DNA of 64,000 nucleotides from a virus (taxonomy: Duplodnaviria > Caudoviricetes), in the IMG/VR virus record IMGVR_UViG_3300037631_006232, positions 64,001 through 128,000 of that record; one strand, given 5' to 3'. The notes beneath the pieces are model-generated. The model searched no databases. It was not told the DNA's origin and saw nothing but the letters and a program-made list of their open reading frames with translations. Shown piece after piece: positions 599-8,600 of the stretch. Position numbers and translations under genes: made by a program. Positions within the stretch are counted from its first letter, which is position 1; each line of letters starts with the position of its first letter.

Positions 599-627
599 TT
601 GAAATCAGGGTGTGTAGTGCATATACT
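599..627 (+). promoter_or_regulatory. sigma70-like promoter for the RNAP/virion operon
   Basis: TTGAAA-N17-TATACT; overlaps the divergent phage-type promoter. Confidence 0.5.
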
Positions 628-654
628 TATGACACATACAGAGTAAATTTTGTG
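624..654 (-). promoter_or_regulatory. Conserved phage promoter motif copy
   Basis: CACAAA-N14-TGTCATAAGTA upstream of the 1..533 gene. Confidence 0.7.
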
Positions 655-663
655 AGTTTTACT

Positions 664-3600
664 ATGGCAAAAAGTACAAGATATCTTAATGCTTCTCCTG
701 AGGAGAGGCAGAGACAGCTGCGTCAAAAAACCCTAGAAGGTGTGCAGAGTTTATTTCCTATAATAGGAACTCACCATACCATAGAAGCGGACAATTTTGA
801 GGTTCAAGAAAAAGAAGTTAACTATAGTGATCATAAAAAAGCTTTGTTTAAAGGAGGGTCTATATATGAGCCTATAAAGGCTACGGTTGTTATAAAAGAC
901 AAAGCCGGTAATGTCGTATCTAAGAGGAACAAACATACGGTTATGCACCTGCCTAGAGTGACTCATCATAATACTTTTATAGTCAACGGTAACGAGTACG
1001 CACTTAAACACCAGCTTAGAACCAAGCCTGGGGTGTATACTAGAAGAAGAGGTAGTGAAGAATTAGAATCTAGCTTTAACCTGGCTAAAGGAGCTAACTT
1101 TAGGTTAAGCCTAAATCCTACTAGAGGCGGCCTTCAGATGGAGTACGGAAGCTCTAAAATTCCTATGTACCCTATACTAAAACAAATGGGTATTAGCGAT
1201 ACTGACATGTCAAAATATTGGGGCAAAGACCTAGTGCAGCGCAATAGGGACTTGTATGGTAAAACCTCCGATAAAGCAGTAGCTAAGCTTTTTTCTAAAA
1301 TAGTGCCTAAGTCGGAACAGTCCTTATACGAGAGTGTACAGGATAAATCACAAGCTATATTGAGAGCTTACGAAAACACTATCTTAGATCCAGAGACTAC
1401 TAAAACAACCTTAAAAAAATCTTTTGATAAAGTAACCCCAGAGGCCTTGTTAGTAGCTAGCAAGAAGCTTGTATCTGTGTATAATGATGAAGATTCAGAG
1501 GACGAGCGAGATAGCTTACAGTTTCAAAAGGTTGTAGGTCCCGAGGACATATTTAAAGAACGTTTGGAGTTGAAGGCTAGGGAACTTAAGTGGAAAATTA
1601 AGAATAAGTTAGACCTTAGTCCGAATGTTAGCGTTGCTAAAGTAATGCCTAGTACTTCGACTAATGGGGAACTTAAAAAGTTTTTGAGTACGGCCCAACT
1701 AGCTAGCTTACCTTCTCAAATAAACCCTGTAGAAATGCTGGATAGCTCCCTAGCGGTAACTCGCTTAGGGGAAGGTGGTATATCTAACGAAAGAGCAGTT
1801 CCTGCTTCTGCTCGTAAATTACACTCATCTACATTAGGTATTATAGATCCTTTTAGGACACCAGAATCAGGTAATGTCGGAATAGATCAAAGATTTACTT
1901 TAGGTGCTCGGAGGGACGATGCGGGAAATCTATACGCCTCTATGGTAGATGCTAAAACAGGAAAGGCGGTAGCCATAGCTGCTAAAGATATGGCCAACAA
2001 AGTTATAGCCTTCCCAAATCAAGACACCAAAACTGGTAGTGTAGACGCCATGATACGAGGTAAAGTAGGTAAAGTAAAACCCAGAGAGGTTGACTATCTT
2101 ATAGCCAATGCTCCTAAGATGTACACTACTAATACTAATCTAGTGCCTCTGCTTGATAGTACTCAAGGTAATAGAATTATTATGGGTTCAAAAATGGTAG
2201 GGCAAGCTATGCCTTTAGTTAATAGAGAGAAACCTCTAGTAATGAGTTCTTTTGTTAGCGACGGGGATGATGAGTCTAAATCTATAGAAAGGGTTGTAGG
2301 CTTATCTACAACTCCCGGAGTTGGGGCAGAAGACGATGGGGTCGTTGAAGAGGTTTCAGACACCCATATAAAAATTAAATACAAGACTAAGGGAGACGTA
2401 TCCTACGAGATACCCAAAAATATGCCTTTAGCCTCCAAGACTTTCTTAGACGGGGTGGTTAGGGCTAAAAAAGGGGACCGTGTTAAAGTAGGAGATACTT
2501 TAATGGATACTAACTTTACTAAAGACGGTACCTTAGCTTTAGGTCGTAATTTAAAAGTAGGTTATTTAGCCTACCACGGTTTAAATTCAAACGACGCAGT
2601 AGTTATGAGCAAGCAAGCCACAGAGAAAATGGCTTCTATAAACATGACTAAATTTGTAATAGAGACTGATAGAGATACTTTGATAGATAGGAATAAGCAC
2701 TCTGCAAACTTCCCCAGACAATTTACTAAAGACCAGTACTCTAAGATGGATAAGGGAGTTATACAGGTAGGGCAGAAACTCAGGTCAGGAGATCCTATAG
2801 CGGCAGTTCTTAGAAAAAAAACACCCAGTATAGAGAACCAAATACTAGGTAAAATACATAAATCTCTTAGGCAGGAGTACTCTGACGCCGCAGAGACTTG
2901 GGATAAAGAATCCGAAGGAGAAGTAGTGGCCGTAGAAAAAGAGGGTAAAAGAACTACTGTTGTAGTTCGGAGTGTTGAGAAATTAAAAATAGGGGACAAG
3001 GTAAGTAATAGGTATGGAGGTAAAGGGGTTATTAGTAAGATAATACCTGATGAGGATATGGTGCAAGATGAGTCGGGTAAACCTATAGATATACTCTGGA
3101 GCTCTTTAGGGGTTGTTAGCCGTATCAATCCTTCGCAAGTAATTGAAACTGCCGCCGCAAAAGTTGCTGAGAAGATGGGTAGATCTATTGCTATACCTTC
3201 TTTTAAAAAACGTAATAATGTTGAGTGGGTGCGAGGCTTGATGAAAAAGCATGGGGTAAAAGATAAGGAGACTGTGTTTGACCCTATAACAGGTAAAAAG
3301 ATACCCAACATAATGGTAGGGCCTCAGTACACCTATAAGTTATTTAAAAGTTCAGACACTAACTATGCCGCTAGAGGCCTTAATGGAGGGTATGACATTA
3401 ATGAGCTGCCTAGTAAAGGAGGGGTTACAGGAGCAAAGGGCACTGGTATAATGGAAATCAATGCTCTTCTAGCGCATGATGCTAGAGATATTATTAAAGA
3501 AAATGCTATTATTAAAGGCACTCGCAATACTGAGTTTTGGAGAGCCTTCCAACTAGGCAGGCCCTTGCCTCCTCCCAAGTCTAGCTTCGCATTTGATAAG

Positions 3601-5025
3601 TTTAAAGGTATGCTTGCAGGGGCTGGTATACGGTTTAAAAAGGAAGGGAATCATATGTCGTTGGTGCCTATGACAGATTCTGAAGTTAGAGGCATGTCTA
3701 ATGGGGAAATAGAGAATGGGAGAATGGTTTTGGCTAAGAATTTAAAAAGTGAAAAAGGAGGGCTATTTGATATAGGTAAAACAGGAGGTATAGTAGGTAC
3801 TAAGTGGACGCATGTAGAACTGCCCGAGCCTATAGTTAACCCCTTATTTAAAGACGCTAGTAGGCGATTACTAGGGCTGACAGATAAACAACTAGATGAG
3901 CAGACCTTTTCTAAAGGTGGGGATTTTGTTAAAAAAGAGCTCAACTCTATAGATATAGATTCCCGATTAACCTCCCTTAAGAAAGCACTGCCTACTTCTA
4001 AAGGTGCTGATAAAGATAATGCTTATAAGCAGATAAAGGCTCTAAATGCTTTAAAAACTAACAATATTAAACCCGGTGATGCTTATACTATGAAAGCTTT
4101 CCCGGTGCTACCTCCAAAACTAAGACCCGTAGTTCCTGGTGCTAAAGGCGATCTTTTGATATCCGATGTTAATCATGTATACAAAGATCTTATACTAGCC
4201 AAGCAAAAGCTTAAAGAAGCCCAAGATCTAGGCTTACCAGATGAAGATGTTGCTAGTATGCGTAAGCATGTTTCTGAAGCTGCAGGAGCTGTTATTGGTA
4301 CTAGAGAACCTGTGTCTTCAAAGCTGGCGGCTAAGCAGGTTAAAGGTCTTGTTAATACTATTACAGGTACTAAAACAGGCTTCTTTAATGGTAAAGTTTT
4401 AGCTAGGAGACTAGACTTTACAGGTAGAGGTACAGCTGCACCGGACCCTAGCCTAGGTATGGATGAGGTGGGTCTTCCAGAATCTATGATGTGGGATATG
4501 TACGCTCCTTTCGTTATGAAAAACTTATCCAGAGGAGGGTACTCTGCCCTACAGGCTAAAAAAATGGTGGAAGATAAATCAAGTCGAGCTAGAGAAGAGC
4601 TTATGATAGAATCTAACAGACGTCCTGTTATACTTAATAGAGCACCTTCTTTACACAGATTTAATGTTATTGCTTTTAAGCCCAAACCAGTTAGCGGTAC
4701 TACTATACAAGTTAACCCTTTTATGGAGGATGGTATGAACTTAGATTATGATGGAGACGCTCTACAAGTACATGTCCCTGTTACTGACGGAGCGGTCACT
4801 GATGCTAAAAAACTGTACCTATCTAATAATGTACTAGGCGATAGAAATAGAGGCACTTTACTAGCTTACCCTAAGCAGGAAGCTATGGCAGGTATTTTTA
4901 AAGCTACTTCAGCTAGTAAATCCTCAGGCCCTATTAAAAAATTTAAAACAAGTAAAGAAGCTATGTCTGCTTACCGGCGGGGAGACGTTTCTAGTACAGA
5001 CATGGTGGAGATAGAAGATGACTAG
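664..5025 (+). CDS. rpoBC: Multisubunit RNA polymerase: beta subunit fused to N-terminal catalytic half of beta'
   Basis: beta motifs FIVNG, TPESGNVG, MGSKMVGQA, GDKVSNRYGGKG, GVVSRIN, GIMEINAL; then beta' motifs HVELPEP, PVLPPKLRP, RLDFTGRG, NRAPSLHR and catalytic NLDYDGD. ATG 664 preferred as start. Confidence 0.95.
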   Translation: MAKSTRYLNASPEERQRQLRQKTLEGVQSLFPIIGTHHTIEADNFEVQEKEVNYSDHKKALFKGGSIYEPIKATVVIKDKAGNVVSKRNKHTVMHLPRVTHHNTFIVNGNEYALKHQLRTKPGVYTRRRGSEELESSFNLAKGANFRLSLNPTRGGLQMEYGSSKIPMYPILKQMGISDTDMSKYWGKDLVQRNRDLYGKTSDKAVAKLFSKIVPKSEQSLYESVQDKSQAILRAYENTILDPETTKTTLKKSFDKVTPEALLVASKKLVSVYNDEDSEDERDSLQFQKVVGPEDIFKERLELKARELKWKIKNKLDLSPNVSVAKVMPSTSTNGELKKFLSTAQLASLPSQINPVEMLDSSLAVTRLGEGGISNERAVPASARKLHSSTLGIIDPFRTPESGNVGIDQRFTLGARRDDAGNLYASMVDAKTGKAVAIAAKDMANKVIAFPNQDTKTGSVDAMIRGKVGKVKPREVDYLIANAPKMYTTNTNLVPLLDSTQGNRIIMGSKMVGQAMPLVNREKPLVMSSFVSDGDDESKSIERVVGLSTTPGVGAEDDGVVEEVSDTHIKIKYKTKGDVSYEIPKNMPLASKTFLDGVVRAKKGDRVKVGDTLMDTNFTKDGTLALGRNLKVGYLAYHGLNSNDAVVMSKQATEKMASINMTKFVIETDRDTLIDRNKHSANFPRQFTKDQYSKMDKGVIQVGQKLRSGDPIAAVLRKKTPSIENQILGKIHKSLRQEYSDAAETWDKESEGEVVAVEKEGKRTTVVVRSVEKLKIGDKVSNRYGGKGVISKIIPDEDMVQDESGKPIDILWSSLGVVSRINPSQVIETAAAKVAEKMGRSIAIPSFKKRNNVEWVRGLMKKHGVKDKETVFDPITGKKIPNIMVGPQYTYKLFKSSDTNYAARGLNGGYDINELPSKGGVTGAKGTGIMEINALLAHDARDIIKENAIIKGTRNTEFWRAFQLGRPLPPPKSSFAFDKFKGMLAGAGIRFKKEGNHMSLVPMTDSEVRGMSNGEIENGRMVLAKNLKSEKGGLFDIGKTGGIVGTKWTHVELPEPIVNPLFKDASRRLLGLTDKQLDEQTFSKGGDFVKKELNSIDIDSRLTSLKKALPTSKGADKDNAYKQIKALNALKTNNIKPGDAYTMKAFPVLPPKLRPVVPGAKGDLLISDVNHVYKDLILAKQKLKEAQDLGLPDEDVASMRKHVSEAAGAVIGTREPVSSKLAAKQVKGLVNTITGTKTGFFNGKVLARRLDFTGRGTAAPDPSLGMDEVGLPESMMWDMYAPFVMKNLSRGGYSALQAKKMVEDKSSRAREELMIESNRRPVILNRAPSLHRFNVIAFKPKPVSGTTIQVNPFMEDGMNLDYDGDALQVHVPVTDGAVTDAKKLYLSNNVLGDRNRGTLLAYPKQEAMAGIFKATSASKSSGPIKKFKTSKEAMSAYRRGDVSSTDMVEIEDD

Positions 5026-5266
5026 AATGCAGTTAGCCTATATTGCCGGAGTCAAATTAGCTTATGCTGTTAAGTTGTCTGACGAAAGCCCTGATGTTAT
5101 CAAATCAGAAGAACAATTACGTTCTCTTTTAAAAATTATAGGCGGGGATTCTCCTAAAAGCTCTCCTAATAAAGTAGTTATTAACTCTGAAGATAAGCAA
5201 TCTAAGGCCTCTTGGGGAGATAAAATTGAGCTAGAAGCAGGTAGCTCTACCGGCATAGAGGTTTAG
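5018..5266 (+). CDS. Small putative virion/internal protein with AYIAGVKLA leader
   Basis: Overlaps RNAP stop; leader motif shared with neighbouring genes. Confidence 0.65.
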   Translation: MTRMQLAYIAGVKLAYAVKLSDESPDVIKSEEQLRSLLKIIGGDSPKSSPNKVVINSEDKQSKASWGDKIELEAGSSTGIEV

Positions 5267-5272
5267 AAGAAT

Positions 5273-6118
5273 ATGGATTCTAATGATATTACGAAGGCTT
5301 ACGAAGCAGGTAAGCAACTAGCTTACGAAGGTAGAGAGAAGAGTGCTTTCTTATCCTCAGTTTTAAAAGGCGGAAAGTTCTTATTTACTGGAGGGCACTT
5401 AGGCAAGCCAGGGTCTCTTATATCTAAATTAAGCCCACATCATATAGGGGCTCCTTTAGGAGGGGGTGCTATGGGGGCTTACTTTGCTGAAGACGGTGAA
5501 AAATCTAAAGGGTTTATTAAAGGTTTTGCCGGAGGTCTTTTATTCAATGCTGCTATGCCTCTAGGTTCTAGTATAGGTAAAAGGATACTGGCCCCCGGGT
5601 TCTCTGGAGCAGGGTCTGCTAAGATAATGAAAGGTATTGGTTTCTCCGATGAGGCTACCGCAGCTATGAAAGCTTCTCAGAATATAAATAAGGCTCTTAA
5701 TACTAGACAAGGAGTATTTAGAGGAGTTACAGAACGTGCCTTATCCTCCGGTAATTTCAAAGGCTCAGCCAAACTAACCCAATCTATAGATGATGTATTA
5801 AAAAATCAGGGTAAAATGTTACCTGATGCTGTAAAAACTAGGCTAACTAACTTACAATCCCAACTATCAGCGGGCTTATCTCCAACCAACCAGAAAAAAT
5901 TCCTTGAAGAATTGCAAGATGTAAGCAGCACCTTGTACCGAACTGGTTATGCTACAGGTACTAAAGGACAGCAGTTTGCCCTTAAAGGTACTAGATTCGC
6001 AAAAGGAGTAGGCATGATAGGTGGTGGTATGGGGTTAGGTATGGCTTTAACAGGGCCTATGGAAAGATCTTTGGACTCTACTCCCTCTTCTTACTTTAAC
6101 TCTACGGGAGGACACTAA
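5273..6118 (+). CDS. Gly-zipper putative internal virion protein
   Basis: AYEAG leader, EKSA motif, GxxxG hydrophobic segments. Confidence 0.65.
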   Translation: MDSNDITKAYEAGKQLAYEGREKSAFLSSVLKGGKFLFTGGHLGKPGSLISKLSPHHIGAPLGGGAMGAYFAEDGEKSKGFIKGFAGGLLFNAAMPLGSSIGKRILAPGFSGAGSAKIMKGIGFSDEATAAMKASQNINKALNTRQGVFRGVTERALSSGNFKGSAKLTQSIDDVLKNQGKMLPDAVKTRLTNLQSQLSAGLSPTNQKKFLEELQDVSSTLYRTGYATGTKGQQFALKGTRFAKGVGMIGGGMGLGMALTGPMERSLDSTPSSYFNSTGGH

Positions 6119-7893
6119 TGGTCCGTGGTAAATTTGCCGATGTCATTTTAAATAATTCTTTGCCCAAGGACTACAGGATAGAAGGGGAGATGGATACTAA
6201 AAAGTTAAAAGCAAGTATGTTACGTATGGCTAAAACTAGCCCAGAAACTTATAAGGTAGTTATCCCTAAGATTAAAAAATTAGGGGACGAGTTTTCTACC
6301 TTCGAAGGTATTTCTGTAGGGCTAGAAGATATAGAGCCGGAGTATAGTAAAAGAAATCCTATACTAAATAACGCCAAACGAAAATTACGTATGGTAGGTA
6401 CAGATGCTAAAAAGAAAATGGCTATATTACTTGATACCCAATCTAAATTGCGGGATATAACAACTAACCACCCTGGGGATATGGGTATGATGGCTAGATC
6501 AGGTAGTAGGGGTAATATGAATCAACTAATGAAAATGGTAGCTAGCCCAGGGATTGTAGGAGATTGGGACGGTGCCCCTATACCTTTCTTAATAGAGAGG
6601 GGGTACTCTGAAGGCTTGTCTCCAGCAGAAGCTTGGATAGCCGGAGATGAGAGTAGGGCTCAAGTTATTAAGGGTCAGTTAGGTACTGCAGAACCCGGGG
6701 AGATGCAGAAAGTTTTGGCATCAGTGATGACTGAAGAAGTGATTGCTTCTAATGATTGCGGTACCAGTAATGGAATATTACTGGAAGCGTCGGACCCTTC
6801 AGTAGAAGGTAGGTACCTAACCACGGGGTCTTTAGCTACGGCTTCTGTAGCCGCTACTCTAGCAAGGAAAGGTAATAAAGTTAGGGTACGCTCTCCTATG
6901 ACGTGCGAATTAGACTCAGGGGTTTGTCAAAAATGTATGGGAACAAGTAACTCCGGTAAGAACTACTCAATAGGGATTAATGTAGGTATACGCTCCGCAC
7001 AAACGCTAAGCGAACCTCTAACCCAAATGGCTCTTAGCGCTAAACACGGGGTGTCTTTAGTAGAAGGTGATCATAAAACTCCTAAAGGGTTAGCTGCCTT
7101 CAAGCAATTTGTGGAAGTCCCTAAAAACTTTTTTCAAAGAGCTCCAGTATCCGATATTGATGGGAGGGTGGAGTCTGTCGCTAAAGCACCTCAAGGAGGG
7201 TTTGATTTAGTCATTGAAGGCTCCCAGCATTACATACCTCCTAATAGAGATTTAAAAATAAAAGTGGGATCTAAAGTGCGTGCGGGAGATGTGTTAGCTT
7301 CAGGTATACCCGCTCCGGATGATGTTATTAAATATAAAGGTCTGGGTGCTGGTAGAGATTACTTAATGAAATCTCTTAGAAAGGTTTACTCTGAGTCAGG
7401 TAAAGAAGTTGATCCTAGACACTTGGAGTTATTAGCTAAGTCTCAATTAAACTATGTACGAATAGATGGAGGCTCCAAAGAATTCTTACCAAACGATATA
7501 GTATCCATTTCTAAAATTAGGAGTTCATTTAAAGATAAAGGGCAGGCAGTACCTTTAAACCAAAGTGTAGGCAAAGTGCTAACTAAGTCTGTAGGAGCTC
7601 ACCTACCGGGCACTAAAATAACTTCCGTAGTTAGGGATGAGTTAGGAAAAGAGGGCGTAGGTACCGTCTATGCTGTTGATTCTAATATAAAAATCACACC
7701 TATAATGGCCGCCGCTACCAGAACACCCTTACTAAACCCTAATTGGATGCAACGTCTAGGTTACAGATACCAAAAACAAACCCTTATAAACGCCGCGACT
7801 TTTGGAGAAAAGTCGGATTTGCACAGCCATAACCCCGTACCCGCTCTAGCTGTAGGTAGTGAGCTTAGAAGAGATGCGAAAGGTAGATACTAA
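6118..7893 (+). CDS. rpoC: RNA polymerase beta' C-terminal half (RpoC2-like)
   Basis: GISVGLEDI, MARSGSRG, bridge-helix region, DCGT and CELDSGVCQKC Zn site, trigger loop SEPLTQMALSAKH, DPRHLE. Confidence 0.93.
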   Translation: MVRGKFADVILNNSLPKDYRIEGEMDTKKLKASMLRMAKTSPETYKVVIPKIKKLGDEFSTFEGISVGLEDIEPEYSKRNPILNNAKRKLRMVGTDAKKKMAILLDTQSKLRDITTNHPGDMGMMARSGSRGNMNQLMKMVASPGIVGDWDGAPIPFLIERGYSEGLSPAEAWIAGDESRAQVIKGQLGTAEPGEMQKVLASVMTEEVIASNDCGTSNGILLEASDPSVEGRYLTTGSLATASVAATLARKGNKVRVRSPMTCELDSGVCQKCMGTSNSGKNYSIGINVGIRSAQTLSEPLTQMALSAKHGVSLVEGDHKTPKGLAAFKQFVEVPKNFFQRAPVSDIDGRVESVAKAPQGGFDLVIEGSQHYIPPNRDLKIKVGSKVRAGDVLASGIPAPDDVIKYKGLGAGRDYLMKSLRKVYSESGKEVDPRHLELLAKSQLNYVRIDGGSKEFLPNDIVSISKIRSSFKDKGQAVPLNQSVGKVLTKSVGAHLPGTKITSVVRDELGKEGVGTVYAVDSNIKITPIMAAATRTPLLNPNWMQRLGYRYQKQTLINAATFGEKSDLHSHNPVPALAVGSELRRDAKGRY

Positions 7894-8600
7894 TGAAGTT
7901 ACCTCCCAACCTAACTAAACTGGTAAGCAAGTTCTTAATCGGCACAGAAAAACTATCCCCTAAAGTAGAATCTAACCTGCGACGGTTAATAACCTCCTCC
8001 GGAAGAGCCTTAGAAACCTCTGCTAATTCCCGAGGATTCTTAATGGATACTCTAATAGGTCGTAAGGGCGGGCTTGATGTTATCAAAGCAAGAGTTCAGC
8101 AAGGCGGCTTACTAGGCCCAGGAGGAGCTATCTTAGGCGATGCTGCCCTAGATCCTAAATTTAAGCAGCTTGTTAGAAACATAGCTAGCTCAAAAGGGGC
8201 TAAGGAAATAGTGAATCCAGATACGGGTAAAGCTATAAGCAGAACTTCTGCTTACGGTAAAGCCTTAGGTATGGGCGCCTTGGAAAGCCTCAACCCTATT
8301 TTTAGTTTAGGTATGCCCGTACTAGATGCTAGAGCCGCTATGCTAAGGCCCGATCACGAAGAAGATGGGGGGTACTCCGGCATATTAAAAGCTCTGGGTT
8401 CCGGAGCGGGTTTCGCTATAGGAGGGCCTCTAGGCCTTATAGGTGGCTCTATAACCGGAGAATTGGGAGGTAGGCTAGGAAAGTCTATAGGAGAAATGTT
8501 TGACCCGACTAATACGGACTTAAAAAATATTAATGTTGCTCTTAAAAAAATTCCCAGTAATTATATACTAGACGAAGCTGTTCCGTCACAATATACTTAA
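7893..8600 (+). CDS. Gly-zipper hypothetical protein
   Basis: Coupled to the rpoC stop; GSGAGFAIGGPLGLIGG segment. Confidence 0.7.
   Translation: MKLPPNLTKLVSKFLIGTEKLSPKVESNLRRLITSSGRALETSANSRGFLMDTLIGRKGGLDVIKARVQQGGLLGPGGAILGDAALDPKFKQLVRNIASSKGAKEIVNPDTGKAISRTSAYGKALGMGALESLNPIFSLGMPVLDARAAMLRPDHEEDGGYSGILKALGSGAGFAIGGPLGLIGGSITGELGGRLGKSIGEMFDPTNTDLKNINVALKKIPSNYILDEAVPSQYT
8569..8597 (+). promoter_or_regulatory. sigma70-like promoter
   Basis: TAGACG-N17-TATACT upstream of 8640. Confidence 0.45.

Follow-up and report, generated by a model that had tools for sequence, protein, structure and literature searches.

The window analyzed here is a stretch of 64,000 nucleotides (bases 64001-128000) taken from a 147,116-bp IMG/VR virus record, IMGVR_UViG_3300037631_006232, which is estimated to be 87% complete and comes from an uncultured marine phage. 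At positions 664-7893 it carries four genes that overlap or abut one another and have ribosome-binding sites, forming a tight operon. The first and the last of these genes encode the two chains of a multisubunit RNA polymerase (RNAP): beta fused to the N-terminal part of beta' (beta'N), and the C-terminal part of beta' as a separate protein (beta'C). A two-chain phage enzyme combining a beta-beta' fusion with a beta' split had been proposed from the nucleotide sequence in an earlier reading, hereafter the original prediction, and this proposal is supported by domain content, by relatives and by phylogenetic trees. Unless stated otherwise, coordinates are those of the window and features lie on the plus strand.

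Domain content and boundaries of the two chains

The first gene (664-5025) is a single open frame that codes for 1453 residues from the ATG at 664, with an alternative GTG start at 610; an identical protein is on record as P0005. In Pfam searches, the beta domains Rpb2_3 and Rpb2_6 are followed in the same product by the beta' domains Rpb1_1 and Rpb1_2, the remaining beta' domains being found in the second chain. The beta module covers about 990 residues (664-3639) and is colinear with the beta part of a single-chain relative, P0181. Its Rpb2_6 match (5e-45) corresponds to the beta barrel with both active-site lysines (GDK...KG), which are conserved and belong to the loop GDKVSNRYGGKG (2992-3027). 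The beta'N module (3640-5022) contains Rpb1_1, Rpb1_2, the clamp helices and the catalytic barrel, and its catalytic loop, identified by motif and alignment (4738-4758), reads NLDYDGD where bacteria have NADFDGD. All motifs quoted in the original prediction, from those of beta to NLDYDGD, are thus present at their places without an intervening stop.

Conservation of these residues was read from alignment columns covering 119 members of the clade to which the enzyme belongs. At both active-site positions of beta, all 119 have a lysine. In the DxDGD triad of beta', the first aspartate is present in all members and the second in 118; the column of the third is disturbed by inteins. The N-terminal zinc ribbon of beta' had been described as having lost its cysteines, and this holds both for the window and clade-wide. 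Indeed, the corresponding site, GLFDIGKTGGIVGTKWTHVEL (3760-3822), has 16 residues without cysteine between GLF and THVEL. In 118 of the 119 members, the segment has 15-18 residues and no cysteine, against 48 residues with 4-5 cysteines in bacteria.

The second chain (6118-7893, 591 residues) carries Rpb1_4 and Rpb1_5 and aligns to residues 600-1100 of beta' in solved structures. Its ATG overlaps the preceding stop codon (TAATG) and is served by the ribosome-binding site GGGAGG. The bridge helix, the trigger loop and the second beta' zinc site are located in this gene, two open reading frames (ORFs) downstream of the first, as had been anticipated. The zinc site consists of Cys 214, 263, 270, and 273 of the chain (6757-6936), and all four cysteines are invariant in an alignment of five sequences.

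At the fusion point (3637-3642), the last residue of beta, equivalent to the C-terminal position of Escherichia coli beta, runs directly into about residue 20 of beta', without a linker. The surrounding region (3322-4479) was modelled with AlphaFold 2 using 35 relatives (mean predicted local distance difference test score, pLDDT, 82.5; predicted template modelling score 0.80). In this model, the fusion point occupies a two-residue turn between strands E103-108 and E111-116, in a block with pLDDT values of 86-92. The model superposes on bacterial beta' N-terminal domains, and Foldseek returned ordinary beta' chains only.

The fission point is located near residue 543 of E. coli beta', where chain 1 ends. 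Residue 45 of beta'C corresponds to residue 36 of cyanobacterial RpoC2 and two further cyanobacterial structures give similar offsets, which places the split 9-16 residues from the start of RpoC2 (8syi_Z, 8h3v_B, 8gzg_Z). The beta' split of phiKZ-type phages coincides with the same cyanobacterial rpoC1/rpoC2 boundary (PMC7598289). In the model of a single-chain relative, the fission point is also found in a turn, between strands E91-95 and E98-100, with pLDDT above 90. The location of both rearrangements in hairpin turns explains why they are tolerated. The best matches among solved structures are, for both chains, ordinary bacterial beta' and not phage enzymes.

Two ORFs separate the polymerase genes. 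The first (5018-5266, 82 residues) starts within the stop region of the fused gene and has an N-terminal leader of the AYxxGxxxAY type; it has no family match and no conservation among relatives. The second (5273-6118, 281 residues) is glycine-rich and carries the same type of leader; it has no family match and only marginal similarity to its positional equivalent in one relative. Both were considered as possible RNAP subunits and rejected, neither being conserved as a polymerase partner.

Relatives and the order of the rearrangements

In a word-indexed search, 584 relatives were obtained. More than 100 of them are about 1450 residues long with the same set of Rpb2_6, Rpb1_1, and Rpb1_2, and originate from TARA, JGI, ENA and Logan assemblies, on contigs of up to 196 kb. 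An exhaustive search with the beta'N part yielded 1669 cluster representatives below 1e-30. The architecture of 275 collected relatives was then classified with the three modules as queries. Like the window, 211 have beta and beta'N followed by a stop. Beta, beta'N, and beta'C form a single chain of about 2040 residues in 41 others; the rest are beta'N-only pieces, mostly fragments (12), or forms with extra tails or inserts (11). No free beta was found among the top relatives in this census.

The single-chain forms relate directly to the two chains of the window. In four long forms (2028-2074 residues), all beta and beta' Pfam domains are contained in one ORF. One of them, P0181, comes from a phage contig that also carries terminase and PAAR genes. 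Both chains of the window align colinearly to it, the end of the fused ORF falling at residue 1474 of P0181 and residue 10 of beta'C at residue 1485. Hence, the break is clean and no part is missing. Among 80 IMG/VR loci with a beta'C alignment, the majority are single-chain and about ten are split. Both states also occur in the complete genomes G001 (IMGVR_UViG_3300017987_000006) and G002 (IMGVR_UViG_3300014204_000001), one of which has a single chain of 2580 residues and the other chains of 1999 and 599 residues. Where the two chains are separate, relatives at 44-52% identity have the fused gene, two to six variable small genes, including a DNA ligase gene in one locus, and a beta'C gene of 589-599 residues. 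Finally, four cultured phages, Salmonella phage Arash and Vibrio phages D69, D148, and D181, match 96-98% of the fused chain at a single location with 34% identity.

Trees were calculated from beta and the beta'N region, cut before its variable part, and rooted with rpoB and rpoC of Acinetobacter and Staphylococcus; archaeal, eukaryotic and named mReC sequences were not part of the taxon set. FastTree was used with 121 and 123 taxa and IQ-TREE (LG+F+G4) with 39 taxa, supports being FastTree local values and the Shimodaira-Hasegawa-like approximate likelihood ratio test (SH-aLRT). In all trees, a long branch (0.9-1.5) parts the phage clade from bacteria, so that close branching with a bacterial RNAP is not observed. 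Single-chain forms are basal and paraphyletic in all of them, and the split forms, to which the window, Arash and D69 belong, are nested; the main split clade has an SH-aLRT support of 99.6 in the IQ-TREE analysis. From this arrangement, we conclude that the beta-beta' fusion is ancestral to the clade and that the beta' split is a later, derived fission.

Two loci with separate beta and beta' bear on this order. At L098 (5894-12210 of JGI Ga0194131_10000129, 115 kb), a beta of 1036 residues and a complete beta' of 1069 residues are encoded in frames that overlap by 4 nt. The locus could represent a secondary one-base change undoing the fusion, a programmed frameshift or an assembly indel. As it nests among single-chain forms (support 98) and has the 4-nt overlap, its state looks secondary or due to an assembly indel. 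At L099, beta' (1008 residues) precedes beta (1357 residues), in the size class of many mReC contigs, and this locus branches outside the whole fused clade.

Other variants were encountered among the relatives. P0364 (L100:9001-12381, on a 174-kb ENA contig) is a protein of 1126 residues in which the C-terminal half of beta, matching residues 501-1010 of the fused chain of the window, is followed by beta'N up to a point shortly after GADFDGD. Some 20 clusters of nearly identical proteins (1126-1136 residues) are of this type. Since only the C-terminal half of beta is present, beta itself must be split in the P0364 clade. At L029:2902-10644, a LAGLIDADG intein lies inside the catalytic Rpb1_2 domain, beside the DxDGD loop. 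An inorganic pyrophosphatase domain (InPase, PF18823) is inserted in beta at L095:1867-7866 and L012:578-5380, with about 30 matches among relatives; it is unusual for an RNAP to contain a pyrophosphatase. In D181 (OZ196140) and D148 (OZ196545), at about 144.1-149.6 kb, the fused-chain match falls in two pieces over an annotated homing endonuclease, so that the RNAP gene of these cultured phages may be interrupted by an intron or intein; the gene of D69 is continuous. As for protein families, the best PHROGs (24349 and 25354, profile lengths 1191 and 1216) were rejected as phage relatives. These families probably reflect contamination with bacterial rpoB/rpoC, since at that level tblastn searches of the phage collection gave contigs of the bacterial type only.

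Sigma factor, genomic context and packaging

The alpha and omega profiles PF01193, PF01000, and PF01192 have no match in the genome of the window's phage. Likewise, the alpha profile PF01193 has no match in five genomes of the clade, a set that comprises two complete genomes and the two cultured phages tested. A sigma factor is present. A gene of the sigma-70 family (222 residues, regions 2 and 4) is located about 7 kb upstream of the window in the same record, homologues of its product are annotated as sigma factors in the Vibrio D phages, and sigma region 2 was detected in four of the five clade genomes. The original prediction of no recognizable alpha or sigma gene is therefore correct for the window itself, but not for sigma in the record as a whole. 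With a phage sigma encoded outside the window, the holoenzyme comprises more than two chains. The predicted sigma docking site is the clamp-helix region, which aligns to residues 260-310 of beta'. Each phage record checked, including that of the window, has one RNAP set only.

The RNAP genes head the block of virion genes. The window is colinear with the structural module of Arash, which runs from gp206 and gp216, the equivalents of chains 1 and 2, through the structural proteins gp218 and gp220, then gp222 and gp226, to the tail genes; identity to Arash is 53% for the protease-like gp222 and 44% for the major capsid protein gp226. In relatives, the gene before the RNAP is portal-like, and all relatives examined have the RNAP flanked by portal and head genes. 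PHROGs annotation of the RNAP neighbors returned almost nothing. In Arash virions purified on sucrose gradients, gp206 has the most spectra (3516, with 100% coverage and 128 unique peptides) and gp216 has 1210 (PMC10585845). The protein encoded directly after beta'C in Arash, gp217, is annotated "DNA helicase" and has 1148 spectra in virions; its positional equivalent in the window (7893-8600, 235 residues) matches no protein family, and tblastn does not relate it to gp217.

A bipartite, promoter-like motif, CACRCAAAT-N(14-16)-TGGCATAAGTA, gives further information on expression. Its core is present in 16 copies, where 1.66 would be expected, and every copy is on the minus strand. The motif, with copies at 43-55 kb of the window, fronts the minus-strand non-structural cassettes and is absent from the plus-strand block of RNAP and structural genes. 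One copy (624-656, minus strand) adjoins the RNAP start codon; it points away from the gene, toward the ORF at 3-554. Sigma-70-like promoter matches near the RNAP genes are at chance level. The absence of the motif from the block and the direction of this copy place the polymerase in the structural expression class. From this and from the virion data of Arash, a packaged and delivered enzyme is the most likely reading.

Taken as a whole, we consider it probable (about 0.7) that these genes specify the catalytic core of the sole RNAP of the phage, a minimal enzyme of the bacterial type, split from a single-chain form, directed by sigma, free of alpha and packaged in the virion. In this enzyme, chain 1 joins the last beta strand to the first beta' strand and ends just past the catalytic barrel, and chain 2 supplies the bridge helix, the trigger loop and the second zinc site. 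The covalent link between beta and beta' would replace the alpha dimer for assembly, chain 2 would dock by completing a shared beta-sheet, and the phage sigma would steer the core to phage promoters. Made with the virion proteins, the enzyme would be packaged and delivered with the DNA, and early transcription would be freed from the host polymerase. The fission site is structurally permissive, and cyanobacteria and phiKZ-type phages have their split at the same site. The fission itself was probably near-neutral, its probable cause being the insertion of small, fast-evolving head-protein genes.

A wider proposal, which we put forward tentatively and at somewhat less than even odds, is that a large, ecologically widespread clade of tailed phages descends from a sigma-dependent, single-chain ancestor of about 2040 residues that had no alpha, omega or zinc ribbon. 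The lineage of the window would have split this enzyme, and would package and inject it, never needing the host polymerase.

Several observations weigh against the reading of a split, alpha-free, sigma-directed and packaged enzyme. The absence of alpha is a result of sequence profiles only, and a divergent scaffold protein or the host alpha may take its place. The complete clade genome G001 has no match to sigma region 2. In the trees, the deepest nodes are weakly supported, the root is on a long branch, and a single-chain form, P0185, nests in a small split clade, so that multiple fissions or a re-fusion are possible. In the Arash proteome, 116 proteins were detected, ribonucleotide reductases among them, and carry-over of abundant enzymes is considered possible by the authors (PMC10585845). 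Finally, the RNAP chains have neither an N-terminal leader nor the enrichment in K-x-A-type sites (z = 0.8 and -1.2) that is seen in the neighboring head proteins (z about 4).

The last two points favor a different role for an enzyme of the same kind and origin, which would not be a virion protein and would perform middle or late transcription in the cell, the host RNAP serving early genes and the detection in Arash reflecting carry-over of an abundant protein. A sigma-70-like hexamer pair at 599-627, upstream of the gene, also fits this role, though such matches are at chance level. We consider it unlikely. The position of the genes between portal and head genes, kept in every relative examined, and the lack of the non-structural promoter motif in the block both speak for a virion protein, and the spectra of gp206 exceed those of the Arash major capsid protein. 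In addition, the phage has a single RNAP set, and if this were expressed solely alongside the late structural genes, it would presumably serve little purpose without being carried into the next cell.

The K-x-A sites of the neighboring head proteins also raise the idea of a polyprotein, in which the head-maturation protease would cut the beta/beta' junction to give separate beta and beta'N chains. This is very improbable: the lack of K-x-A enrichment in the RNAP chains argues against cutting of the fused chain, the junction has no such site and no linker, and it is a two-residue turn in a confidently modelled hairpin whose sequence is conserved as a continuous structural element. As for an artefact, namely a frameshift, misassembly or missed stop joining two genes, or a captured cellular rpoBC, the overlapping frames at L098 indicate that single-base changes can toggle the state, but the chance is negligible, because more than 250 relatives from the TARA, JGI, ENA and Logan assemblies and the four cultured phages keep the frame continuous, with conservation across the fusion point in more than 200 independent relatives from many samples, and the enzyme is in a phage context throughout, on its long branch and with 27-29% identity to bacterial RNAP.

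Comparison with known polymerases

The cultured relatives are among the closest known systems. Arash, D69, D148, and D181 (OQ632216, OZ195729, OZ196545, and OZ196140) have the same architecture, with chains of 1525-1527 and about 606 residues, the same place in the virion module, a sigma gene, and 34% identity over 98% of the fused chain. They differ from the window in having more and other genes between the chains, nine in Arash, some of them on the opposite strand. In addition, their chains are annotated just "RNA polymerase subunit beta" or "hypothetical protein". Indeed, Arash gp206 (1525 residues) is labelled "subunit beta" and is treated as beta, without comment on a fusion, in the Arash paper (PMC10585845); gp216 is the beta'C chain.

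The mReC enzymes (multisubunit-RNAP-encoding Caudovirales; Weinheimer and Aylward 2020) resemble that of the window in several respects. They belong to metagenomic tailed phages of about 100-300 kb and form a long branch away from cellular RNAP, with a minimal bacterial-like beta (about 1000 residues) and beta' (about 900-1000 residues), and these sizes match the modules of the window (beta about 990, beta'N 461 plus beta'C 591). However, full-length beta and beta' are assigned to two different genes in each mReC entry (PMC7481178). The screen required a beta' of at least 800 residues with NADxDGD, its table gives 1364-1371 and 1005-1010 residues for the adjacent genes of two contigs, and fusion is mentioned for crAss phages only (PMC7481178). 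With its fused beta, a beta'C of 591 residues and NLDYDGD, the layout of the window would be rejected by these filters.

Enzymes of the phiKZ/AR9 type are likewise phage-encoded, devoid of alpha and omega, and split in beta' after the catalytic barrel (PMC7598289), and a virion-packaged version of the jumbo-phage RNAP exists (PMC7598289, PMC7824862). In contrast to the window, their beta is divided into two or three chains and never fused to beta', and they have two paralogous sets and no sigma. In the phage of the window, there is a single set, beta is undivided and fused to beta'N, and a factor of the sigma-70 family is encoded. The sequence similarity of its enzyme to the phiKZ/AR9 type is far lower than to bacterial RNAP. 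As a functional class, virion-packaged phage RNAPs comprise N4 gp50, the phiKZ vRNAP and crAss gp66.

In cells, the C-terminus of beta is joined to the N-terminus of beta' in Helicobacter and Wolbachia, as in the window, and cyanobacteria and plastids have the rpoC1/rpoC2 split. These fused or split cellular enzymes differ from that of the window in that they keep alpha, omega, the zinc ribbon and lineage-specific inserts. To our knowledge, no cellular enzyme combines the beta-beta' fusion with a beta' split. In the literature searched, outside which most subscription journals lay, we found no description of a phage enzyme with the beta-beta'N/beta'C layout, nor of a bacterial-type single-chain phage RNAP of about 2040 residues. 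Thus, each element is known by itself (phage multisubunit RNAP, rpoBC fusion, beta' split site), and it is their combination, the clade-wide scale and the origin by fission that appear to be unreported.

For annotation, the consequence is that hundreds of database entries labelled only "beta subunit" conceal half of beta'. Since cultured members of the clade are at hand (Arash on Salmonella, D69 on Vibrio), biochemistry, cryo-electron microscopy and tests of rifampicin-independent infection are possible now. A single-chain, sigma-dependent RNAP of 2040 residues would also be a compact tool for transcription in vitro and in synthetic biology.

Cellular-type RNAPs are thought to need an alpha-like platform for assembly. 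The phiKZ-type enzymes broke this rule, yet they are very divergent and have no sigma. The present clade can be aligned residue by residue to bacterial RNAP and keeps sigma, without alpha, omega or zinc ribbon. Its one-chain, two-chain and frame-shifted versions are natural experiments on how the two large subunits are assembled. If the wider proposal is true, the enzyme would be the simplest known cellular-type RNAP that still uses a sigma factor.

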